Shown here in pieces: positions 21,142 through 62,713 of a stretch of 64,000 nt of DNA. Position 1 is the stretch's first letter; each line of letters starts with the position of its first letter. A program made the position numbers and the translations under genes. Source of the stretch: Bacteroidaceae bacterium (lineage in GTDB: Bacteria > Bacteroidota > Bacteroidia > Bacteroidales > Bacteroidaceae); the NCBI GenBank assembly GCA_017448965.1, contig JAFSKK010000058.1, positions 961 through 64,960 on the forward strand. The letters run 5' to 3'. Below the pieces are notes generated by a model. The model saw only the letters and a list, made by a program, of their open reading frames with translations. It searched no databases and was not told the DNA's origin.

Positions 21142-21233
21142 CTTCCACTGCCTCCAAACCGACGTCGGGGACATCGGTCGACCGACATCGGGGACATCGG
21201 TTAACCGACATCGGGGACGTCGGTTTAGAGGCT
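21142..21233. repeat. palindromic intergenic element, family A copy 1 (three 23-bp ACCGACRTCGGGGAC units)
   Basis: ACCGAC recurs at 21158, 21181 and 21204. The termini CCTCCAAACCGAC / GTCGGTTTAGAGG are inverted. It is closely similar to 31822-31923. Confidence 0.85.
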
Positions 21234-31821: not shown

Positions 31822-31923
31822 TCTTCCACTACCTCTAAACCGACCTCCCCGACGTCGGTCGACCGACATCGGGGACATCGGTTGACCGACGTCGGGGAGG
31901 TCGGTTTAGAGGTAGTGGAAGGA
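31822..31923. repeat. palindromic intergenic element, family A copy 2 (about 100 bp, 38-bp perfect arms)
   Basis: CTTCCACTACCTCTAAACCGACCTCCCCGACGTCGGTC is mirrored exactly at the other end. The centre carries ACCGACATCGGGGAC units as in 21142-21233. Confidence 0.9.
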
Positions 31924-37414: not shown

Positions 37415-37506
37415 CACAAAAACGGTGTGAGTCACACCGATGGGGTCGGTCTGAGTCAGACCGAGGGTGGCGGTGTGAGTCACACCGATTCTGAGGTTGT
37501 GGAAGA
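37415..37506. repeat. three phased palindromes (CGGTNTGAGTCANACCG, 24-bp spacing) ending in GAGGTTGTGGAAG; possibly a diverged family A element
   Basis: The palindromes lie at 37423-37439, 37446-37464 and 37471-37487. The terminal GAGGTTGTGGAAG resembles GAGGTAGTGGAAG at 31909-31921. Confidence 0.8.
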
Positions 37507-52617: not shown

Positions 52618-52625
52618 AAGTTACA
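52618..52625 (-). promoter_or_regulatory. -7 promoter box TAACTTTG for the esterase gene
   Basis: Reverse complement of CAAAGTTA, about 42 nt upstream of the ATG at 52576. Confidence 0.4.
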
Positions 52626-53133
52626 CATCTATTTCGGAACTACCCACGTCAGAGCCACATTTTTTCATCTGGCTTGGGAGATTTGTCCTCATTTCGCCAT
52701 CGTGAGAGATGTATTTGCACTTCTTGTTCACATTGATAGGTGTGCTCTTCGGAAAGGCGATGCTATACGCCTTGTCGAGGGCATTCAGGTTCACCTTCCG
52801 CATGCCGATGCCCAGTTTCACGCAGACGATGGCTCTCAGCAATTCGCGGTGCTTGCGTGGATAGAGTTTCGGCGATGGCAGTTCATCCCATCCGCACACC
52901 TCGTCCTCTTCGTTGAGCACGTTCGATGCCTGAAAGCACACCTCCCAAATGAAGTCATCGTCGGCTTCACTTCCGAACCACGATTGCAGCACACGGCGGA
53001 TGCAGAACCGCCTGTACTGCCCCTTGAAGAGGCGCCTTGTGCGCTCCAGCCGAAGCCAGAGCTGCACAAAGCATTCTTGAGTATTTTGAATATCAATCAT
53101 AGCGGTAGCAAATTTTTCACCTTTCATTTTCAC
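52621..53133 (-). CDS. hypothetical protein (island gene)
   Basis: 170-aa ORF with no recognised domain. The first 11 codons are encoded by the heptamer microsatellite, so MIDIQNT at 53100 is an alternative start. Confidence 0.45.
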   Translation of the reverse strand: MKMKGEKFATAMIDIQNTQECFVQLWLRLERTRRLFKGQYRRFCIRRVLQSWFGSEADDDFIWEVCFQASNVLNEEDEVCGWDELPSPKLYPRKHRELLRAIVCVKLGIGMRKVNLNALDKAYSIAFPKSTPINVNKKCKYISHDGEMRTNLPSQMKKCGSDVGSSEIDV

Positions 53134-53178
53134 TTTTCATTTTTCACTTTTCACTTTTCACCTTTCACTTTTCACTTC
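53113..53178. repeat. heptamer microsatellite, about nine units of (G)TGAAA(A/G) on the minus strand
   Basis: TTTTCACC TTTCAT TTTCAC TTTTCAT TTTTCAC TTTTCAC TTTTCACC TTTCAC TTTTCAC. It lies between the stop of the 766-aa gene and the next ORF. Confidence 0.85.
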
Positions 53179-53180
53179 TT

Positions 53181-55481
53181 CTATACCTTCCCACCGATTT
53201 TCTGTTTGTATTCAGGCGTCTTGCAGAAGCGTCCGCAAACATCATCATAGGCAATGTATCCTCGGTTCTGCCATACTCGCAGGGTGCTTTCACCGTCACC
53301 TTTACGACCTTGCTGCTGGCGCATCTGGTGGTACTGCTCACGGGTGAACTCATCAGGCAGCAACTCCAGCAGGTTCTGAGGTCCCGACTGACGCTGAATC
53401 TCCACTTCCTCGCGAAGTTCACGTTCCAGTTGCTGACCGAAGTAGAGCATCTTGCACCAGAGATTGTACGACTGGCTCCAGCGGACGAAATCGGCAATCT
53501 CGTGCGACCACTTGTAGCCGTGAGCCACGTAGAGCACCATTCCCTTCAGCCAGGCAATCACGTTGGCACGATAGCTCAAAACTCGGTAGGCTTCGCTCTC
53601 ATACAGTCGGGCGGCGTCCTTGTTCTCCTGCTTCATGTCGAGCGACAGACGCTTGGCTTGCTGACATTCTATCAGCCCGTTGGCAGCCTCCAGACGGTCG
53701 ATATAGGGCTTCAGCTCATTGGCAAACAGATGGTCGTAGATGCCCAGGATAGGTGCCGTGTCATCGTCGTCATCTGAATGGATGATGGTGCTGATGTCGA
53801 GTCGGCTCACCGTGCCGTCATTGACCATTCGTGCAAAAAACTTCCTGGCATTGGGAGGGGTCGTCGAGGCGTTAAAATTCCATCTCAGAGGGGCAATTCC
53901 CGACACCGAATCCGCACCTACACGCTCCTGCCCTGCATCGGAGTTGTCAAACGCTTTTCTGATCAGCAACCCCACCTCATCGACCGTTCCCTTCGAGGTC
54001 ACCTTCTTCAAGGCCTCAATCTCGTCCACGATGGTGTAGATGAAACGCTGGCCGTTGTTGTGGGCATCGATGATGCGCTGGTTGAAGACCGCATCTGTCA
54101 GGTTGTCGATGAGCATCTGGATGCAGATGTCTGTCGGACGCGGGGCTTTCTTCTGCTTCGCACCCGGATTCTTCTGCTTCCAATCGGCCTCGCGCTGGCG
54201 GTTGGGGATGTCGCGCTGCTTGATGTCCTCCATGATGTACTCGATGGGCTTCTTGATGGTGCCCTTGCCGATACTCTGACGGCCAATCAAGACATTCATG
54301 AAGGTTGCCTCATGCTCCACGTTGTCCCAGTAGCGGAACTTCACGCCGTGCAGGTGAACACCCAGTGCTGGGAACACCGCATTAGCTACAGCAGGCTTGT
54401 AGAACCAGGGGACGTTCTTCGTCAGCAACTTCACCAGTGGCGGCAACTTCTTCGGCATCGGAGGAGGTGTGGTGAGCGTACCGCCACAAGCCTTCACACC
54501 TGCCTGCGACTTCAATGCCTGCAACACCTGCTTCAATCGGTACGGCATACCCTTCTTCGGCTCCTTCAGCGCGTTCTCGATGGTCTTGCGCCATTCGGCC
54601 ACATCCTCCTGGTTCTGGGTTCCCCAATAGTTCGGAATGATCTGCATCATCTTCTCCAACGAATATCCGCAGATGCTTCTCAGCGTCACAGCCAGCTCGA
54701 ACGTCAGCACATTGCGGTCGCCATCCACAGGCTCCTTGCCGTCGTTGAACAGCTCCCAATACTTCTGAATGATGTCCTTAAACAGCATCCCGTTGTACCT
54801 CGCGTCAGGGTCATAGGGAACCGATGTCAGAGGGCTGATGTTTGATGTCTGAGAGACAGCCTTTTCGGAACTGTAACACTGTAACACTGTAACATTTTCT
54901 GTTTCTCTCATCTCCACAGGTGTTGTATCAAAAATCTCGTCGTCCAGAAACAGCAACTCATCGTCATCAGCAGTCGTTGTGAAGAACACCCTCGTGATGT
55001 CCTTGGCACCCTCGTCGAACTTCACGCCCAGCACGTCGCTTGCCCACCGCAGGTTCTCCTCCTGTGAGAGGTCCTCATGGCGACGGAACACCAGATGGTA
55101 GCCCTTCGATGCCGAACGCTCCAGCATGAGCAACCCCAATGCCTCCCGTTTTTCCATCACGAGTTCTGGCACACACTTCATCTTCTCTTCCATCCAAGCC
55201 TTCTTTTCCTCCTCCGAAAGCCCTGCGGGAGCCACGAAGTCGATATCCATGCCCACCGAACGCGATGCCGTCTTGCACCCCTTCAGGGCACCATCCTCGC
55301 CGGGGATGCACGAGTAGTTCATCTGAATGAGCCGATGCTTCTGCCGGGTGTCGCCCTCTCTCACCGTCTTCAGAATTGCCTTCTGTTTCTCACTGCCACG
55401 CAGACGCAGATACTCGTCTCGTGAGAGGACGGGGCGCATCACCTTCGCCCCATCCTGATATGTTACAAAATATACACTCAT
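53181..55481 (-). CDS. VirE/BT4734-like primase-helicase-type protein
   Basis: 766 aa. The N-terminal roughly 190 aa follow the BT4734/VirE_N pattern (...REGDTRQKHRLIQMNYSC...SRSVGMDIDF). The central region has a P-loop-like LIGRQSIGKGT resembling VirE/D5 NTPases. Confidence 0.5.
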   Translation of the reverse strand: MSVYFVTYQDGAKVMRPVLSRDEYLRLRGSEKQKAILKTVREGDTRQKHRLIQMNYSCIPGEDGALKGCKTASRSVGMDIDFVAPAGLSEEEKKAWMEEKMKCVPELVMEKREALGLLMLERSASKGYHLVFRRHEDLSQEENLRWASDVLGVKFDEGAKDITRVFFTTTADDDELLFLDDEIFDTTPVEMRETENVTVLQCYSSEKAVSQTSNISPLTSVPYDPDARYNGMLFKDIIQKYWELFNDGKEPVDGDRNVLTFELAVTLRSICGYSLEKMMQIIPNYWGTQNQEDVAEWRKTIENALKEPKKGMPYRLKQVLQALKSQAGVKACGGTLTTPPPMPKKLPPLVKLLTKNVPWFYKPAVANAVFPALGVHLHGVKFRYWDNVEHEATFMNVLIGRQSIGKGTIKKPIEYIMEDIKQRDIPNRQREADWKQKNPGAKQKKAPRPTDICIQMLIDNLTDAVFNQRIIDAHNNGQRFIYTIVDEIEALKKVTSKGTVDEVGLLIRKAFDNSDAGQERVGADSVSGIAPLRWNFNASTTPPNARKFFARMVNDGTVSRLDISTIIHSDDDDDTAPILGIYDHLFANELKPYIDRLEAANGLIECQQAKRLSLDMKQENKDAARLYESEAYRVLSYRANVIAWLKGMVLYVAHGYKWSHEIADFVRWSQSYNLWCKMLYFGQQLERELREEVEIQRQSGPQNLLELLPDEFTREQYHQMRQQQGRKGDGESTLRVWQNRGYIAYDDVCGRFCKTPEYKQKIGGKV
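54859..54894. repeat. ACTGTAAC octamer-triplet repeat, copy A (inside the primase-like gene)
   Basis: GCCTTTTCGGAACTGTAACACTGTAACACTGTAACA. It encodes the linker VTVLQCYS and matches 61343-61380 in the same orientation. Confidence 0.9.
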
Positions 55482-55505
55482 ACGTCATTCACAGTTTTAA
55501 GAGTT

Positions 55506-55889
55506 TTACCACTGAGTCTCCGTGCGTCTCGTCTTGATGAACGCTGCCTGTTCCTCCGCTTCCTCCCGATGCAATGCCTCGATGAGAGCCTTGCCCAGTT
55601 TCTTGGGGAATCGCAGCAGGAAAATCACGCTCTCCTGCGTCTCCTTCACCTCGCCATGTGCAGTCGTGAAGAGCCTTGTGTAGCGGCTTCCGCTGTCCTT
55701 CGCATACGGGTGAAAATGGCTTGTTCCCGATTCGTCGGTCACCATCCGTCCCTTCTGACTTGCTTCGTTACCTCCCACCACGATGTGCTGTCCCAACTCG
55801 AACGCACAAGGAAAGATGTTGATGCCACCGTTCTGGCAGAAAACTGTCTGTGTCTCCATCTGGAGATTGTTAATGAAAATGTTGTTCAT
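55506..55889 (-). CDS. hypothetical protein
   Basis: 127-aa ORF, 24 nt upstream of the primase-like gene on the same strand. No recognised domain. Confidence 0.45.
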   Translation of the reverse strand: MNNIFINNLQMETQTVFCQNGGINIFPCAFELGQHIVVGGNEASQKGRMVTDESGTSHFHPYAKDSGSRYTRLFTTAHGEVKETQESVIFLLRFPKKLGKALIEALHREEAEEQAAFIKTRRTETQW

Positions 55890-56130
55890 GTTGTGATACT
55901 TCTAATTTTAATTTGAGAATTAAAAGCATCGTGCGCACGTTGCCGTAGTCAATGAAGATGTGTTTGCAACCACATGCTTCATGTCTGTGAGAGTTTGTCG
56001 GACCATTTCAAACTGATGGCGCAAAAAAACATTGCACCCCCGAAAGTCAGAAGCCATTTGTGTGTGCTTCTTTTCCTTTCGACGGTGCAAAGTTCGGGAG
56101 AATAAAAAATGTGTTTGTTTTAGTAAAACT

Positions 56131-56163
56131 CACAAAAATGTTTTAGTAAAACAACATTTTGTG
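56131..56163 (-). terminator. hairpin terminator at the end of the R-M-linked operon
   Basis: CACAAAAATGTT / AACATTTTGTG stem, 3 nt after the stop at 56167, with a U-containing tail on the minus strand. Confidence 0.45.
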
Positions 56164-56166
56164 AAA

Positions 56167-57015
56167 TCAGTCGTTTTGGGGTAGATTTTCCAATAGTTCA
56201 TCAAAATAATCCTGTATGTCCGATTTGTTTCGTTTATATGCGGCATTCAATAATTGTCCCACATTCGTTTCCTTTTTATTGAAAGCATACCGCATAATTT
56301 GTTTAATGGTCTTTTCTTTGTTTTTTACAGGTTTGCCTTTTCTGTCAACAAACCATTTTGCTTTATACATACAATCGAGCACCACAAGCATGGATGTTTC
56401 TTTGCCATCCGCTATTTTCAAATCAGCGGTTTCAACTCTGGGAGAAGAATCCAGAAGAGACACCTTACCATTGTCCACAGCATTTTCAACCATCTCTTCA
56501 ATCGTATCAGACAAAAACACATCACTCTGTATGTATTCTATAACAACGGCTCTCAATTTCTCTTCGCCTAAACGATAGACATTAGGCATGAATGTATTCC
56601 TCAATTCTTCCATACAGGCATCATGCTCATCCATCTGTTCCATTAGGCACAAAGCAAGGGTGTTATGTAAAGACTTTTTTGTCACAATCAGACACATGGA
56701 AACACAATACATCACCACATTCACAGCAAGAGCCAGTTCCTTTTCTTCTGTTCCATCATCTGACAGATCTCTAAAATCATTGTACATTCTGTCCCAAAGA
56801 TTTCCCATGTTGAAAACAGCCTTGCTCTCATCTTCCTTGATGTCATCAAGAACGGCAAGACACTCCATAAAAACCTCCTCTGCAGAAAGGCGGAACTTTG
56901 CCATCTTTCTACAGAAATGCTCGCAGGGATTCTTCAGGGAAAGATAGATGACATGCTCGCCATATTCATTTCTGACCGCCTCTCTTGCGCTTCTTCTTAG
57001 TCGGTTCCTCATCAT
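56167..57015 (-). CDS. hypothetical protein (operon gene 5, no recognisable domain)
   Basis: 282-aa ORF that overlaps gene 4 by 50 nt. An alternative ATG at 56904 (MAKFRL, 246 aa) would leave a 61-nt gap. No P-loop or nuclease motif seen. Confidence 0.55.
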   Translation of the reverse strand: MMRNRLRRSAREAVRNEYGEHVIYLSLKNPCEHFCRKMAKFRLSAEEVFMECLAVLDDIKEDESKAVFNMGNLWDRMYNDFRDLSDDGTEEKELALAVNVVMYCVSMCLIVTKKSLHNTLALCLMEQMDEHDACMEELRNTFMPNVYRLGEEKLRAVVIEYIQSDVFLSDTIEEMVENAVDNGKVSLLDSSPRVETADLKIADGKETSMLVVLDCMYKAKWFVDRKGKPVKNKEKTIKQIMRYAFNKKETNVGQLLNAAYKRNKSDIQDYFDELLENLPQND

Positions 57016-57940
57016 TGTATGTTTCTGTTATATGCCTCACGCTTTCCAACCATTGCATGATGGAAAAATCCCCTCTGTCCGTTTTCGTTCCAAAGGAAGT
57101 TTGACCAGAGATAAATTCCTTCAACATTTCGTCGCCCAAAGTCACCATGGCCTTCGTCTCCTGCCCGTGACGATACACTCCATACATGCGGAAATGCACG
57201 GCAATGTTATATCCGTTGTCACAACACAAATTCACCATCTGAGCCATATCTTCCTGTGTCCTGTCCAAATGCAAAGTGCCATCCTTCGATGCCTCAAAAT
57301 GCATTCCTGCTTTCTTCGCCCTGAAAGCCTTAGCCAAATAGTGCATCATCTCCAGACGTTTCTGCACATCGTCTGGGTCATCGACCGATTTCACCTTTTC
57401 GGAATCGGGGAAATCAAACACCACCTTCCTGACGGTATCGCCAAATTCCGTCTGCTTGCCGACTGCATCCCAGAAATCCTCGGCATTCATCTTGGCCTTC
57501 AACTCAAGGTGAATCCCGTAGTCATGTTCCAAAGTGCTGTTGAAAGATTCCTGCAAGATGTCACGCACCTTGTCGGGCTTGCTGTCGAAAGCCGCAGAAC
57601 GCTCGATGGCAATCAAACCGACATCAGCACGGTTATAAACCAACACATAACAGCCTGGCTGAGCCTTTTCCGTCAGTTCCTCATGCTTCTTGGGAATTTT
57701 CACATTCTTCTCATTGCAGACAAATAGAGCCATTGCGTCCCCATACTTCCGTTCCACATCACATTCCAGCGGCACCTGTTCACCCTTCCTGTTCGTCTTG
57801 CACACCTTCACATTGCCTCCAACAAACAGTGTGGAGAAATATTCATGCGCCTTGTCAATGGTCTTCACACCATCCTTGCCAAACACATCTTTCTGTCCAG
57901 CCTGTTCAAAATGAATTTTGTAAATTGCAAATACCGCCAT
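56966..57940 (-). CDS. hypothetical protein (operon gene 4, no recognisable domain, basic KKKRKRGGQK tail)
   Basis: 324-aa ORF starting 4 nt after the stop of the HpaII-family gene. No known motif recognised. Confidence 0.6.
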   Translation of the reverse strand: MAVFAIYKIHFEQAGQKDVFGKDGVKTIDKAHEYFSTLFVGGNVKVCKTNRKGEQVPLECDVERKYGDAMALFVCNEKNVKIPKKHEELTEKAQPGCYVLVYNRADVGLIAIERSAAFDSKPDKVRDILQESFNSTLEHDYGIHLELKAKMNAEDFWDAVGKQTEFGDTVRKVVFDFPDSEKVKSVDDPDDVQKRLEMMHYLAKAFRAKKAGMHFEASKDGTLHLDRTQEDMAQMVNLCCDNGYNIAVHFRMYGVYRHGQETKAMVTLGDEMLKEFISGQTSFGTKTDRGDFSIMQWLESVRHITETYNDEEPTKKKRKRGGQK

Positions 57941-57944
57941 ATAC

Positions 57945-59027
57945 CTATTTCTTAAACCTTATCTGCAAGTTCAACTTAATATATACCTCACCGTCTTCTC
58001 CTCGATACAAAGCCCCGAAATGGTAACGGCTGCGACTCGCGCGCTCAAAACGCGTATTATTATATAAATAATCTTCCACTTCGTTCCGATTGTAAAAATG
58101 ATAGCAAACGATGTCGCCATCCTTTTTCACAACCAAATAGCCACCATTGGCATCATAACGTCCAGTCCATTCCTTTGCCGGTGTCATACCTAGAGCAGCA
58201 TCTAGCAAAAGTACTTTCATCTTGTGCTCATAAAAAGTATAGACATTCTTTCCTGTAAATCCAAAGGGATTCTGTTTTGCCACCAGTTCTACTGCTTCTT
58301 TGATAGAAGATGTGGATGCTGGCATACTGTCGCAAATCAGACACATTGCAATGAATTCAGGCATACATAAATCGAGAAAAAGCAGATTATTCTTGAAAGT
58401 TTGATGTTCTATGTCTGAATACATCAACTGTAATCCCTTATCTTGGATTTTCTTCATCCTCGGAAGATGGTCTTCTATCGCATTAACTTCCCGTATCTCA
58501 TCGTCCGTTATCTGTCCTCCCTCTACACGATAGCGAATATTCGTTGTTTCTCCAGCATTGAGCAGAGTTGAAGCACTCCCCAATTGTGACTTTATGCTGA
58601 AACCAAGCAAGGGAGTCATATTTGTGCGTAAATCGTGGATAACAATGTGGATGTCCGCTTTGTCTTTCGAAGGGGCTTTCAGTTTTGTACACCCAATTTG
58701 GTTCATGAAACACTCTGTAGCGGGAATTGCAAAAGCACTTTTACTCCCTGCCTTTATCTCGTCAAGCAAGTTGGCTGATTCTTTCATGAACTTATCCATT
58801 GACACACGAACAAACTCTTTGCCATCTTCATCCACCACAACTATGTTCTGCTCACTGCAAGGCTTGTACTCATATTTTTTACTTTCTTCACGAATCACAT
58901 TCAAGATGGGATAATATAATTCCAACTTGTTAAGATTCTCGTCTCCAGCATGGACTTTTCCTTCTCCGAGGAGTCGGAACAATGTGTAAATCTCACTCCA
59001 TTCTCCTTTATTTCCTGTCAATGACAT
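57945..59027 (-). CDS. HpaII-family type II restriction endonuclease (putative)
   Basis: 360 aa. The N-terminal GNKGEWSEIYTLFRLLGEGK motif and the size match my memory of the RE_HpaII family. It also has a PD...SxK-like site (DIHIVIHD...GFSIKSQ) and sits next to a C5-MTase. Confidence 0.55.
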   Translation of the reverse strand: MSLTGNKGEWSEIYTLFRLLGEGKVHAGDENLNKLELYYPILNVIREESKKYEYKPCSEQNIVVVDEDGKEFVRVSMDKFMKESANLLDEIKAGSKSAFAIPATECFMNQIGCTKLKAPSKDKADIHIVIHDLRTNMTPLLGFSIKSQLGSASTLLNAGETTNIRYRVEGGQITDDEIREVNAIEDHLPRMKKIQDKGLQLMYSDIEHQTFKNNLLFLDLCMPEFIAMCLICDSMPASTSSIKEAVELVAKQNPFGFTGKNVYTFYEHKMKVLLLDAALGMTPAKEWTGRYDANGGYLVVKKDGDIVCYHFYNRNEVEDYLYNNTRFERASRSRYHFGALYRGEDGEVYIKLNLQIRFKK

Positions 59028-59075
59028 ATCTTTCCATCCTATTTTCTAAGAGTTATGACTAATTTATCGTTATGG

Positions 59076-59714
59076 CTACTGGAATTTGTCCATTTTCTTA
59101 TCCTTTGGGGTAGGATGAATGTTTACCAGATTTCCCTCCACAACATCAATCTTTGTAGACTCGCAGAACTTCATACTTTTCAATTTTGTGACGAGTTCAT
59201 CTATCTGTTTTGTGTTACAATCAATCACATCATCAAGACCGATAAGCAGACCTTCCGGGATTTTGGCTTTTGTGGCCCTTGCTTCTTGGGCATCCAATGT
59301 CAACAGATAACTTTGTGCCTTGCGATGAACATATTTCAATGCAATGGCTTCAAGGTCAGCCTGCTTGTATCTTTCACGAAGGCTTGTCTTTAGGGATAGA
59401 CATACAGGCCGTTCTTTCGAATAAAGAATGGTGTCAAACTCTATATTGGGAACAAAAGCCACTTTTGCCTGTGTGTAAAACGGCAGGATTCCCTCACGGT
59501 ATAGAAGAGTGTATATCACTAATTCGAAATAACCTCCCCCAATTGAATTGTTTTTATTTTCACATGCTTGATATTTGTCCCAATAAAATTTCACGTATTC
59601 ATGGGGATAAGTGTATTTGACATCGCAAAATGTCTCATTGGGAGTCATACTCTCAAAGAGTTTTGAGATTTCACCTTCATTTTTGATAAAACCGTTTTCT
59701 AATAGTACCGACAT
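59076..59714 (-). CDS. small PD-(D/E)XK nuclease with the SxK-x3-RER signature of CCGG-family restriction enzymes (putative)
   Basis: 212 aa from MSVLLENG (ATG at 59714, 11 nt after the MTase stop). Motif: EFD-x14-SLK-TSL-RER. The ORF-track start at 59870 would overlap the MTase by 145 nt. Confidence 0.5.
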   Translation of the reverse strand: MSVLLENGFIKNEGEISKLFESMTPNETFCDVKYTYPHEYVKFYWDKYQACENKNNSIGGGYFELVIYTLLYREGILPFYTQAKVAFVPNIEFDTILYSKERPVCLSLKTSLRERYKQADLEAIALKYVHRKAQSYLLTLDAQEARATKAKIPEGLLIGLDDVIDCNTKQIDELVTKLKSMKFCESTKIDVVEGNLVNIHPTPKDKKMDKFQ

Positions 59715-59725
59715 AACCTTTGTGT

Positions 59726-61042
59726 TTATAAAATCCCTAACATTTGTAATTCTCTCTCCGCTGTTGCTTGTATAGCTGGAATAGCCACAGAATTGCCAAA
59801 CTGCTTGTAAGCAGAAGCATCGGCCACAACAATTCTGAATCTGTCGGGAAATCCCTGCAATCTGGCCCATTCACGGGGAGTCATTTTACGAATTCCGTCA
59901 CGATTAACCTCGCCCTTGATATGAGTCTCTGGTACATAATTAGTCAGACGATTATCCACCACCAAATTGCACTCTCTCCCCATTCCTCCAACAACAATAG
60001 CATTTGCCACTCCATCAATATCAATAATCTTGTATCCAAAACCATGCCCAGCCGCTTCATGTCGTGCGCGATGACGTTTCAAAGTTTCAATATACACTGT
60101 AGAAAGATAATATTTCACCGAAACCTCGTGTTCTTCCATCACATCACGGAAACGTGGGCGTAATGCGCCAGGTGTAGTAGGCTCCGGATAACGAAATTCA
60201 TCAATGGCAACATGCAAGTCCTTTCTGAAACCAATGATATAAATACGTTCACGATGCTGAGGCACCCCAAAATCCATCGCGTTCAAAATCCGAGGAGGTA
60301 CAACATCATATCCTGCATCATCCAAATGCTCAAGGATTGTCCTCAGCGTTCTGCCTTTGTCATGAATGGCCAATCCTTTCACATTTTCAAGAAAGAAAGC
60401 CCTCGGCTGATGCTTCCGCAAAATATCTTCAATCTCAAAAAACAGCGTTCCCCTAGTCTCATCCTTAAAGCCGAGCCTTCTGCCAGCCAAAGAAAACGCC
60501 TGACAAGGAAAGCCAGCACAAAGGATGTCAAAATGCTCTGGAATATACTTTTTCGTGATGTCCTTCGTGATGTCACCAAAGGGCATCTCCCCATAGTTGG
60601 CAAAATATGACTCCTGTGCCTTTGCGTCAAATTCCGAAGAATACACGCACTTGCCACCCAGATTCTGCATGGCGATACGAAAACCTCCAATGCCTGCAAA
60701 CAAATCAATGAAAGTGAACTTAGGGTGCTCGGGAGCAGGGAATGGAACATCGAAGAAATCGTTGAACAAATCATATTGCAAAGGGTCTTCTGCCACATGC
60801 CACACATCCTCGTCAGAAGCCACATCCACAACATCCTGCCGCACATGTTTCCTTGCCAAAAAGTCACGGACAGCTTCTACAATCTCTCCACGCTCAGCAT
60901 CAGTCCCCCCATTATGCAGATACTGGCTCAGCACCGCCATCTGCGTTTCATAGGACAATTCTCCATACACCTTCATGCCCGTTGCCTCATCCACCTCTTC
61001 AGGGAAATCCGTCAATTTTATGTTTTCTTTCTTCTTTGCCAT
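59726..61042 (-). CDS. DNA (cytosine-5)-methyltransferase with about 100-aa N-terminal extension
   Basis: Motif I FIDLFAGIGGF, motif IV GFPCQAFS, motif VI ENVKGL, motif VIII QHRERIYI, motif X QFGNSVAIP. Confidence 0.93.
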   Translation of the reverse strand: MAKKKENIKLTDFPEEVDEATGMKVYGELSYETQMAVLSQYLHNGGTDAERGEIVEAVRDFLARKHVRQDVVDVASDEDVWHVAEDPLQYDLFNDFFDVPFPAPEHPKFTFIDLFAGIGGFRIAMQNLGGKCVYSSEFDAKAQESYFANYGEMPFGDITKDITKKYIPEHFDILCAGFPCQAFSLAGRRLGFKDETRGTLFFEIEDILRKHQPRAFFLENVKGLAIHDKGRTLRTILEHLDDAGYDVVPPRILNAMDFGVPQHRERIYIIGFRKDLHVAIDEFRYPEPTTPGALRPRFRDVMEEHEVSVKYYLSTVYIETLKRHRARHEAAGHGFGYKIIDIDGVANAIVVGGMGRECNLVVDNRLTNYVPETHIKGEVNRDGIRKMTPREWARLQGFPDRFRIVVADASAYKQFGNSVAIPAIQATAERELQMLGIL

Positions 61043-61065
61043 TTTGCAATAGTCTATTTGAGTTG

Positions 61066-61073
61066 CAAATTTA
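61066..61073 (-). promoter_or_regulatory. -7 promoter box TAAATTTG for the methyltransferase operon
   Basis: Reverse complement of CAAATTTA, about 24 nt upstream of the ATG at 61042. Confidence 0.5.
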
Positions 61074-61158
61074 CAATTTTTCTGTGAGATTTAGAAGAAA
61101 GCCCACAGAAAATATAAATTATTTAATAGAAACGCTTGGGCTTTTGTTTGCAAATGTC

Positions 61159-61223
61159 TATCTTTGCATCGGGATTCCCCGAAGTCCCTGCTTTCGCATA
61201 CTTCGGGGTTAGTGTTTTATTTT
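61159..61223 (+). ncRNA. candidate tiny transcript: -7 box TATCTTTG, 9-bp hairpin, U-rich tail
   Basis: -7 box at 61159-61166. Hairpin CCCCGAAGT (61177-85) / ACTTCGGGG (61200-08), followed by TTAGTGTTTTATTTT. Confidence 0.3.
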
Positions 61224-61235
61224 GAGTAAGGCAAC

Positions 61236-61270
61236 ACCGTGTTACAGCGTTACAGTGTTACAGTTCCAAA
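61236..61270. repeat. ACTGTAAC octamer-triplet repeat, copy B (inverted)
   Basis: CACCGTGTTACAGCGTTACAGTGTTACAGTTCC is the reverse complement of GGAACTGTAACACTGTAACGCTGTAACACGGTG. Confidence 0.9.
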
Positions 61271-61342
61271 AACAATCATGGAAGGCAAAAATAAACTCTA
61301 TATTTATATATAAATATAGAAGTATATTTAGGGGTTTGGAAA

Positions 61343-61380
61343 GGCCTTTCGGGAACTGTAACACTGTAACAAGTGTAACA
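61343..61380. repeat. ACTGTAAC octamer-triplet repeat, copy C
   Basis: GGCCTTTCGGGAACTGTAACACTGTAACAAGTGTAACA. With copy B it forms an inverted pair around an 85-bp AT-rich spacer containing CTATATTTATATATAAATATAG. Confidence 0.9.
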
Positions 61381-61468
61381 GATTGCGGTCAACTTCTTCA
61401 GTACAATTTTTTTTCAAATCGTTGAAACTTTTTTGGGGAAATATTCGTAGACCGCACTCTGGATGTTG

Positions 61469-61476
61469 TACCTTTG
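61469..61476 (+). promoter_or_regulatory. -7 promoter box TACCTTTG for the plus-strand G-rich unit
   Basis: TAnnTTTG match about 210 nt upstream of the ATG at 61689. Confidence 0.4.
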
Positions 61477-61688
61477 CATCGTCGAAAATGAGAGGGGCGC
61501 GGAGACGGTGTGCAGGGGGAAGGGTGCACGGCATGCACGGGGAAGCCTGCACGGCACACGCGGAGAGGCGGTGACGGGGTGAGCGATGGAGTGAGAATGG
61601 TTGGATGTGTGGAGTGAGAATGGGTTCGAAAATGTTGTTTAATCAGAAAAAGGAATTTAATCAGAAAAACGGAAAGGAGGACGGAAAG

Positions 61689-62189
61689 ATGAAGATACGG
61701 ATGTCGAGGTATTATGGCGACGGGAGCGTGACGAAGTCGGTCATGCGGATTGAGAGCGAGCGGGGCGGTTTCGAGCCGATGGAGTGCGAGGCGCGGGAGA
61801 TGGCTTTCAAGGTGTACACGGAGAAGTTCAGGGGCAGCAGCGGGTATTGTGTGCCGGAGGGGACTTACACGATGCAGCCGAGGTGCACGGAGTTTGGGGT
61901 GATGACGCTGCGCACGAAGGACATGAGGGGGCATGCGAACGTGAGCATCGGATGGAGCTGGACGAGGCAGACGAAGCATGACACCATTCTGGTGGGATGG
62001 AGCGACGGGAGCCAGGCGGCTGAGGTGAGGCGCATCACGGGGAGCAGGGAGTGCTTCGACGAGCTGACGAAGAGGGTGTATGCGGCTTGGGCGGATGGCG
62101 AGGAGTTCACGCTGGAGATTGTGAATGAAGACCCTCTCTGTCCTGACGGACATCTCCCCCATAATGGGGAGACCATGCGGAATGTTTAA
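61689..62189 (+). CDS. hypothetical protein, possibly DUF5675-like (phage L,D-peptidase-like fold)
   Basis: 166 aa from MKIRMSRYYG. It loosely matches the pattern T.S...IE....F...E......G.CVPEGTY.......F.......T.....H..V.IG.......T.ILVG. It has strongly G-ending codons, and its last roughly 18 codons are encoded by a family B repeat fragment. Confidence 0.4.
   Translation: MKIRMSRYYGDGSVTKSVMRIESERGGFEPMECEAREMAFKVYTEKFRGSSGYCVPEGTYTMQPRCTEFGVMTLRTKDMRGHANVSIGWSWTRQTKHDTILVGWSDGSQAAEVRRITGSRECFDELTKRVYAAWADGEEFTLEIVNEDPLCPDGHLPHNGETMRNV
62130..62180. repeat. partial family B element (half copy of the etfB/etfA insert)
   Basis: GACCCTCTCTGTCCTGACGGACATCTCCCCCATAATGGGGAGACCATGCGG compared with the reverse complement of 28723-28773, GACCCTCTCTGTCCTTCGGACATCTCCCCCGTAATGGGGAGAGCCATCCGG. 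Confidence 0.8.
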
Positions 62190-62275
62190 AAGGAAAAATA
62201 TATGTTGTTGCAACGGCTATATAAGTGTTTAAAAATGAATGTCTAACAAGTTTTAAAAAGAAAGGAGAAACGATT

Positions 62276-62713
62276 ATGTCTATTGTAGTTCGAAAGACGA
62301 AGATGAAGCTCACTTATCGTGAGGGAAAGCCCGAGGTGTACAAGATGCGCCAGCTGACTTACCAGCCGCTCACGTTCGAGCAGTTGCTGTCGGAGATTCA
62401 GGTGGTGGGTGTGAATCCCGCGCAGACGCAGGCGGTGGTGACTGCCTTGCTGAACCGAATGGTGCAGTATCTGAACCTCGGCCACGCGGTGCAGCTCGAC
62501 AACTTCGGCACCTTCAAGGTGTGCACCAAGTGGAAGGTGGCTCACACGCTGGAGGAGTGTACGGCTGACACGAACGTGGTGAAGAACCTCCGCTTCTACC
62601 CCTGCAAGGCGCTGCAGACGTTGCTGCGCGAGCAGACCATCAAGGTGAACGAGGCGGTGTCGGAGCAGGAGCCTGACAGCGGCGGTGGCGACGATGACGG
62701 CGACGGTGAGTAA
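62276..62713 (+). CDS. Bacteroidales HU-related DNA-binding protein with acidic tail
   Basis: 145 aa from MSIVVRKTKMKL, with AAGGAG 9 nt upstream. The pattern ...LTFEQLLSEI......QTQAVVTALLNRMVQYLNLGHAVQLDNFGTFKV matches the HU_rel family. Confidence 0.75.
   Translation: MSIVVRKTKMKLTYREGKPEVYKMRQLTYQPLTFEQLLSEIQVVGVNPAQTQAVVTALLNRMVQYLNLGHAVQLDNFGTFKVCTKWKVAHTLEECTADTNVVKNLRFYPCKALQTLLREQTIKVNEAVSEQEPDSGGGDDDGDGE

Follow-up and report, generated by a model that had tools for sequence, protein, structure and literature searches.

A stretch of 64,000 nucleotides (nt) from a Bacteroidaceae bacterium (contig JAFSKK010000058.1; hereafter, the window) carries three sets of an 8-bp repeat, here called A, B and C, in and upstream of the gene for a 766-amino-acid (aa) primase-helicase. 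The octamers are most likely cognate binding sites of the C-terminal domain of this protein, as predicted from sequence comparison and a structural model: the octamer variant of a locus covaries with one residue in the predicted recognition helix of a winged-helix domain. Set A lies within the gene itself, whereas sets B and C form an inverted pair around an A+T-only palindrome several kilobases upstream, and this arrangement recurs in related loci. On balance, we read the octamers as iterons bound by the winged helix of the locus's own initiator of the Pri-Rep type, with B and C as an origin-like dyad and A as a third set acting in cis, a reading that we consider reasonably probable.

Three octamer sets in and upstream of a primase-helicase gene

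The octamer ACTGTAAC has eight exact matches in the window, where 1.19 are expected; 100 shuffles that preserve dinucleotides never reached this number. Of the eight, seven fall into the three sets, two of which enclose an A+T-rich spacer:

54870-54893, minus strand: putative iteron set A, three perfect octamers (GTTACAGT on the gene strand), then TCCGAAAA
61241-61264, plus strand: putative iteron set B, two perfect units and one GTTACAGC; right arm of the dyad in gene orientation
61265-61354: spacer between B and C, 90 nt, A+T-rich
61298-61319: perfect A+T-only palindrome CTATATTTATATATAAATATAG, or 24 nt as TCTATATTTATATATAAATATAGA with the flanking T and A (61297-61320)
61355-61379, minus strand: putative iteron set C, two perfect units and one AGTGTAAC; left arm of the dyad in gene orientation

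The initial annotation of this DNA, made from the sequence alone, had reported the octamer core in three copies, with B inverted and C in the orientation of A, and all three were confirmed. In set B the order is GTTACAGC GTTACAGT GTTACAGT, followed by TCCAAAAA, so that the last unit faces the palindrome. Set C has the same polarity as set A, and the outermost of its three units is degenerate, with a 9-nt spacing. In pairwise comparison, the direct repeat shared by A and C is 28 nt long (93% identity), and the inverted repeats measure 33 nt for A and B (94%) and 24 nt for B and C (92%). Set A is in frame within the 766-aa open reading frame (ORF), where it encodes N-VTVLQCYS-SE, again as originally described, in a linker that is predicted to be disordered.

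The 24-nt palindrome is the centre of the B/C dyad and is a candidate unwinding or cruciform element. The description of B and C as an inverted pair around an AT-rich spacer containing a palindrome thus stands, except that the spacer measures 90 nt between the outermost units and not 85. The flanks within the spacer are conserved and asymmetric, reading, in gene orientation, CCCTAAA(A/T)AT towards C and TTTTTG(A/C)C towards B. The dyad as a whole sits in a divergent intergenic region.

The sites occupy fixed places in related loci

The comparison set comprised 80 related loci from species-representative genomes which, together with the window, amount to 81 loci and 1.26 Mb. The 80 loci come from rumen or gut Prevotellaceae/Bacteroidales assemblies, save one contig binned as Lachnospiraceae (L056). 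Across this DNA, 89 of the 90 strict GTT[AG]CAG clusters are in four fixed places, with practically none elsewhere, and when the unit is widened to G-Y-T-R-CAG-Y, at least one cluster is present in 76 of the 81 loci. In broad terms, the first place is the linker of the gene (45 of the 81 loci). The second is just behind the gene or behind p170, the small gene that follows it (24 loci), such that about a third of the loci have the third set outside the gene. The third place is the inverted pair, located 1.0-9.7 kb upstream (25 loci). The third set is on the gene strand in all of the 45 linker and 25 post-gene cases, the post-gene cases being free of coding constraint, and this fixed polarity points to a directional role in cis for set A. 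Moreover, because other loci keep the set just outside the coding sequence, set A appears to be a DNA element that tolerates translation rather than a selected peptide.

The dyads of the 25 loci that were aligned share one plan, namely, three units, ~35 nt, an A+T-only palindrome, ~35 nt, and three inverted units. Their spacers are 92-153 nt long with a GC content of 0.16-0.36, the palindrome is kept while the octamer type varies, and the orientation of the dyad is identical in all 25. In an independent scan, the exact 24-nt palindrome was found in at least 120 metagenome contigs. Among the 80 contigs that could be oriented, 65 contain both arms, which are of the same unit type in 63 of these 65, and the arms are 34-35 nt from the palindrome on each side. 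A fourth set to the left of the HU-family gene that lies beyond the dyad was considered as a general feature and rejected, being found in four loci only (L010, L029, L030 and L060).

At the stop of p170 in the window (52625-52641), the gene strand reads GTAGTTCCGAAAT, which resembles the 3' flank of the octamer sets, CAGTTCCGAAAA; this is possibly the remnant of a set behind p170, of the kind seen elsewhere in the family.

The octamer variant covaries with residue 736

Within a locus, one octamer variant is present at all sites, and the loci differ, with GTTACAG, GTTGCAG, GCTACAG, GTGACAG, GTTTCAG or GATACAG as the unit. The distant pair of L074, the one apparent exception, may be part of an adjacent element. 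Where a genome has two copies of the locus, two variants are in use (for example, L018 versus L062, and L015 versus L022). A sliding nearest-neighbour test located the strongest link to the octamer type in residues 677-756 of the protein. Most of the signal is carried by residue 736 in the motif TLR-x-W, the best column outside of the linker (mutual information over entropy, MI/H, 0.66). With the loci typed by the unit that adjoins the TTC flank, the pairing of residue and octamer is obeyed in 68 of 71 loci and is as follows:

Residue 736 is S or C: octamer G(Y)TGCAG
Residue 736 is V: octamer GTTACAG (the window, with Val736)
Residue 736 is T: octamer GCTACAG or GTTTCAG
Residue 736 is Q or K: octamer GTGACAG

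The same association is seen among phylogenetically independent pairs of loci that are close, with 88% identity or more over residues 232-700. Of the 14 pairs with different octamer types, 13 have different residues at position 736, versus 3 of the 22 pairs with the same type (Fisher p = 3e-6). No other column changes in as many of the 14 pairs; residues 732 and 739, located on the same helix face one and two turns away, differ in 10 of them. In the AlphaFold2 model, residue 736 is within a predicted helix (731-739) that takes the position of the recognition helix of a winged helix. The four metagenome contigs that reach the C-terminus all combine S with GTTGCAG, which is consistent with the pairing but weak owing to the small number. 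Because the variant covaries with a residue of the predicted recognition helix, the octamers are best explained as cognate sites of the C-terminal winged helix.

A predicted divergent primase fused to an AAA+ ATPase and a winged helix

The protein and its predicted reader domain are encoded at the following positions:

53181-55481, minus strand: 766-aa Pri-Rep-like protein, with an N domain like archaeo-eukaryotic primases (AEP; BT4734-like), an AAA+ ATPase and a C-terminal winged helix
53193-53372, minus strand: winged-helix coding region, with the codon of Val736 at 53274-53276

The AlphaFold2 model of the protein (mean predicted local distance difference test score, pLDDT, 87.8) begins with an alpha/beta domain (residues 1-185). 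The linker at 192-219 is disordered, with a pLDDT below 50, and is followed by a helical domain, an AAA+ core of the MCM-like/DUF3987 type (about 380-600) and a helix-helix-helix-wing domain (704-763). The best fold matches of the model are MCM helicases. Apart from the motif VTxLQC(Y/C)SS, which recurs in many homologues, the linker is hypervariable in both length and sequence, and no other part of the gene combines disorder with hypervariability.

The 766-aa protein has no direct match in Pfam (E <= 0.01), NCBIfam or PHROG, the subfamily lying below the Pfam thresholds, and a PDB sequence search with the family profile gave no match either. Its probable place in the lineage of the BT4734-like_N/DUF3987 genes (PF08800, PF13148) is indicated by distant relatives. 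Of 30 such proteins with 29-57% identity, 7 have a match to BT4734-like_N and 10 have one to DUF3987. BT4734-like proteins are a family of AEP, and for DUF3987 a role as a helicase in mobile elements has been predicted (Kazlauskas et al., 2018, PMC5862659). The motifs MDIDF (D79, D81), GYHLVF (G127, H129), D156/K160-D161, GKG (K406) and DEIE (E487) are present in the protein, so that AEP motifs I (DxD), II (sxH) and III (hD) as well as Walker A and B are all accounted for. D79, D81, G127, D156, K406 and E487 are invariant in the deep alignment A2, down to about 30% identity, and K160 and D161 are nearly so. H129 is invariant in the alignment of closer relatives, A1, and the majority residue in A2. 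We class the protein as a divergent AEP primase of the BT4734-like type that is joined to an AAA+ ATPase (DUF3987/MCM-like) and to a winged helix, and the label "primase-like" that it had been given holds through distant relatives and conserved AEP motifs, although not through any direct match in Pfam, NCBIfam or PHROG. The family is large, with more than 8000 clusters at 90% identity and 1499 at 50%.

One relative, P0123 (561 aa, L081 1-2439), is devoid of the primase domain and begins just past the linker position. It was considered as the product of a deletion between A and C and set aside as uninformative, as its upstream DNA is unrelated and contains neither octamers nor a dyad.

Gene neighbourhood

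On the minus strand, the order of genes is two GH115 genes, an esterase gene, p170, the 766-aa ORF, p127 and a low-GC block of five genes. Past B and C, on the plus strand, there follow a DUF5675-like gene, an HU-HIG gene and then gldN. The features of this neighbourhood are:

52621-53100, minus strand: p170, conserved downstream partner of the 766-aa gene, with a core of ~125 aa
55506-55889, minus strand: p127 (127-aa ORF), directly upstream of the 766-aa gene
56167-61042, minus strand: variable cargo slot, the low-GC five-gene block
61605-62189, plus strand: DUF5675-like gene, transcribed away from the dyad
62225-62713, plus strand: gene for an HU-HIG (HU-family) DNA-binding protein, recurrent left neighbour of the dyad

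The start of p170 is probably the ATG at 53100. The protein is predicted as five helices; it has no family match, and the five-helix model has no fold match at E < 1. For p127, too, there is no family match, and an ORF of similar size is found at this position in most of the 24 related dyad loci with upstream ORFs listed. The cargo genes are, in the window, a C5 DNA methyltransferase, a weak BsaWI-like ORF, an HpaII-type endonuclease and two ORFs without assignment, and metatranscriptome contigs over the cargo are sparse. In an assembly of the same locus from another sample (L084, 11880-12861), a 324-aa cargo gene is split into ORFs of 78 aa and 255 aa, owing to either a frameshift or an error in the sequencing.

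On the far side of the dyad, the HU-HIG gene is the usual neighbour across the related loci. The DUF5675-like gene likely starts at the ATG at 61689, and its leader contains a purine-rich 23-nt tandem repeat in two copies (61511-61556). Public gene calls on the source scaffold place a 271-aa minus-strand ORF at 61398-62213, which looks spurious because the plus-strand DUF5675-like frame is conserved in five related loci. Between the start of the methyltransferase gene and set B, the plus strand (61160-61225) harbours a -7 box of the Bacteroidota type (TAtcTTTG), then a strong hairpin CCCCGAAGT...ACTTCGGGG and a T run. This element could be a small transcript or a terminator; a scan of 52-64 kb with Rfam matched no RNA family.

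Nine heptamers in tandem (53114-53177), GTGAAAA on the gene strand, lie between the 766-aa gene's stop and p170, and other loci have different heptamer arrays at two equivalent spots, one ahead of the gene and one past its stop. The stretch in the window is shared by many members of the community, hence its depth of several-thousand-fold in metagenome contigs from the rumen and several-hundred-fold in those of metatranscriptomes. Tandem repeats of 23-24 nt with CGACATCGG-type cores (21157-21225 and 31839-31906) and a tandem repeat at 37423-37489, with a unit of inverted CGGTGTGA/TCACACCG halves, are seemingly unrelated to the octamers.

An origin-like dyad and its alternatives

In Staphylococcus aureus pathogenicity islands (SaPIs), the iterons lie on both sides of an AT-rich region in opposite directions and are recognised by Rep via a C-terminal winged helix, and in SaPI5, Pri and Rep are fused (PriRep5) (PMC9371898). 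Because the anatomy of B, palindrome and C matches this replication module, we read it as an origin-like dyad. The likeness extends to an AEP-type primase joined to a self-loading AAA+ helicase-initiator (MCM-like or superfamily 3, SF3), to an iteron type that is matched to its cognate Rep (here by the covariation with residue 736) and to a chromosomal element with accessory cargo. There are, however, clear differences. No sequence similarity is detectable, the family here being BT4734-like/DUF3987, and the units are of 8 bp compared with 5-6 bp in SaPIs. The dyad is 1-10 kb upstream, past the cargo slot, whereas the SaPI iterons are immediately behind rep, and an extra, third set is present in the linker or behind the gene. 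Finally, the locus is without integrase, repressor or packaging genes and has no known helper phage, and its hosts are rumen Prevotellaceae.

Under the origin-like reading, two initiator-helicase rings would load at B and C, each set about 35 nt from the palindrome, and would melt the A+T core, probably with the help of the adjacent HU-family protein. Set A would be a second site that works together with the dyad in cis, through looping, pairing, control or the arrest of forks, and the variable defence cargo would occupy the slot between the dyad and the initiator genes. One of two proposals in the initial annotation had been iteron-like sites plus an unwinding element. The part on binding sites is supported by the residue-736 covariation and the conserved dyad; beyond this, we infer that the protein physically binds the sites, that the dyad fires as an origin and what set A does. 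Between this proposal and the other one, recombination, the origin-like reading is favoured.

Several observations weigh against an origin. A dyad was found within 10 kb in only 15 of the 35 loci with that much upstream sequence. In four rumen metagenomes, the depth over the cargo and the flanks of the dyad equals that of the chromosome (68 versus 67-75 in X1); such flat depth is compatible with inducible firing and does not exclude it. Plasmid records and IMG/VR contain no relatives, and phage records gave one weak match, a 4-kb "Bacteriophage sp." contig at 31% identity, so that the family has no known member that replicates autonomously. Firing, if any, must be conditional. The covariation itself could arise from another co-inherited factor that reads the sites. 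Moreover, binding sites in a divergent promoter region could be operators and not an origin.

This last objection can be extended to a full alternative, in which the sites are operators only. The winged helix would then regulate the divergent HU/DUF5675 and cargo promoters without any start of DNA synthesis, and set A would be an autoregulatory roadblock inside or behind the protein's own gene. The intergenic position of the dyad, the lack of copy-number excess in the metagenomes and the lack of plasmid or phage relatives of the module all fit with operators, and a set inside or just behind the gene suits autoregulation. However, the catalytic residues of both the primase and the ATPase are invariant over deep divergence, and a pure repressor needs neither. 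Furthermore, two inverted sets spaced evenly about an A+T-only palindrome are the anatomy of an origin, as in SaPIs (PMC9371898). Also, the cargo adjacent to the dyad is unrelated from locus to locus, which leaves no constant regulated target on this side. We regard operators without an origin as unlikely, but as an explanation to be kept in mind.

An extension of the origin-like reading appears to us rather improbable, namely, that the HU gene, the dyad origin, Pri-Rep and the small partners make up an integrase-less chromosomal "replicon cassette" that fires in situ or represents a new satellite-like element. A trigger such as phage attack would bring about over-replication of the exchangeable defence slot and, through it, gene-dosage immunity, and a private specificity of iteron and winged helix, residing largely in one residue, would let several copies coexist per genome. 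Two related proposals were rejected. A chromosomal oriC at ~61 kb had been suggested by a sign change of the GC skew, but in an extended contig (L082) the skew follows the gene strand; the flip at 61 kb is local to two plus-strand genes, and the skew is unchanged beyond the module. A phage satellite or an island resembling phage-inducible chromosomal islands (PICI) was discarded, since no integrase or packaging family was found in the module or recurs in the flanks of 40 loci, and since IMG/VR contains no relatives and phage records gave only the one weak match.

Exchange of the cargo and the N-terminal domain

The cargo differs by locus and consists mostly of restriction-modification genes, alongside Bro-N/ANT and other accessory genes. 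Hence, the framing of the repeats as restriction-modification-linked was incidental, the operon in the window being one of many cargoes. Between loci, DNA homology is present at the dyad and missing over the cargo; it picks up again at p127, in the interior of the N domain or at the linker set, to within a few bases. For L080 versus L002, homology is limited to the dyad and resumes within a few bases of the linker set, and where the third set is behind the gene, homology stops at the set. The breakpoints are not fixed (-622, -500, +156, +343 and +620). In the protein, the similarity of two loci in the N domain shows no correlation with their similarity elsewhere (r = 0.03), and there is an upward step in identity at the linker, as in the window versus L080, with 30% identity in the N domain and 90% in the C-terminal part. 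To judge from these sequence comparisons, the N-terminal primase domain is a swappable module. L073, like L080, joins an N domain ~30% identical to that of the window to a 90%-identical C-terminal part.

These patterns bear on the other proposal of the initial annotation, that the repeats are recombination sites. In this case, crossover at the direct pair A/C or the inverted pair A/B would lead to excision, inversion or exchange of the 6.5-kb segment, and the enzyme would be an unrecognised recombinase, possibly p170, p127 or the primase-helicase itself. The segment from the dyad to set A is, indeed, the variable part, and the identity step at the linker with the lack of correlation between the N domain and the rest, the resumption of homology at the linker set in L080 versus L002 and its end at post-gene third sets all speak in favour of such sites. 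However, scans with Pfam, NCBIfam and PHROG revealed no recombinase family in the module and no integrase or packaging family either, and there is no recurrent integrase in the flanks of 40 loci, the flanks consisting of unrelated housekeeping genes. p170 was rejected as a recombinase, being a small five-helix protein with no fold match. Junctions of A/C deletion or A/B inversion, which the initial annotation had proposed as a check, were found neither in the contigs of the four metagenomes nor in four independent assemblies from different samples, which have the same gene order; the search covered assembled contigs, from which rare variants could escape. Two contig joints, 53172>62146 and 54776>62128, were examined as possible deletions and discarded, as their sides measure only 27-33 nt, lie off the octamers and belong to community contigs.

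Further observations are at odds with crossover at the octamers. The dyad has a single orientation in the 25 aligned loci, the third set is often outside the gene, a deletion between A and C would destroy the 766-aa gene, and the residue-736 covariation is explained by binding, with no crossover needed. Because the breakpoints vary and neither a recombinase nor junctions were found, homologous exchange anchored in the conserved flanks explains the pattern. Thus, the segment between the dyad and set A does behave as a variable unit in which cargo, p127 and the N domain are swapped, but site-specific recombination is not supported as the means of exchange. We do not think that set A is a crossover site and consider recombination at the octamers quite improbable.

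Finally, selection of the repeat as coding sequence (the VTxLQC(Y/C)SS peptide) or its origin as a generic dispersed Prevotella element, akin to repetitive extragenic palindromic (REP) sequences, is hardly credible: the peptide motif does recur in many homologues, but the same DNA is non-coding in the dyad arms and behind the gene (24 loci), the linker is predicted to be disordered and is otherwise hypervariable, clusters are practically absent elsewhere in the 1.26 Mb, and the variant tracks residue 736, far from the linker.

Discussion

The arrangement described here, with the predicted sites of a primase-helicase both close to its gene and several kilobases away, has a counterpart in the phage satellite P4. 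The alpha protein of P4 is a primase-helicase whose C-terminal DNA-binding domain reads octamer iterons at ori and crr, which are several kilobases apart, and one of these sites adjoins the alpha gene. The P4 crr is the nearest precedent that we can name for set A; to our knowledge, neither P4 site lies inside coding sequence, unlike set A. The primase of alpha is of the Toprim/DnaG type, not an AEP, and P4 bears an integrase and can exist as a plasmid as well. With regard to the working of the dyad, the simian virus 40 (SV40) large T antigen and papillomavirus E1, two viral SF3/AAA+ initiators, load as double hexamers at an A+T element that has inverted initiator sites on either side. In oriP of Epstein-Barr virus (EBV), a dyad symmetry element is combined with a family of repeats that are read by the same protein, and this distant set modulates the origin and is a polar fork barrier. 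The proteins and hosts of SV40, papillomaviruses and EBV are unrelated to those considered here, and the likeness is in the working only. Closer to the window, Bacteroides chromosomes presumably contain a similar neighbourhood with HU-family and amidase-like genes. As for the cargo, P4-like elements bear hotspots of defence genes (PMC9122126).

An iteron origin with a Pri-Rep initiator is a kind of system that is already known. As far as the searched literature shows, the new features are the protein lineage, the cargo slot that splits the origin from the initiator, the third set overprinted on the linker of the initiator, the near one-residue recognition code, and a system without any integrase or phage-related genes. 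In that literature, no cis sites, origin or function have been described for any BT4734-like/DUF3987 member.

Genes for BT4734-like/DUF3987 "primase-helicases" abound in the Bacteroidota of gut and rumen, and the locus analyzed here gives this uncharacterised family a putative DNA target, a predicted reader domain and a near one-residue code. The octamer set in the disordered linker is a clean case of cis-acting DNA overprinted on coding sequence, and the sharp break in relatedness at the linker shows domain-level cassette exchange in a replication protein. If the origin-like reading is true, it would account for the gathering of defence genes beside these primase-helicase genes, and the dyad origin could seed replicons for Prevotella genetics, where they are much needed.

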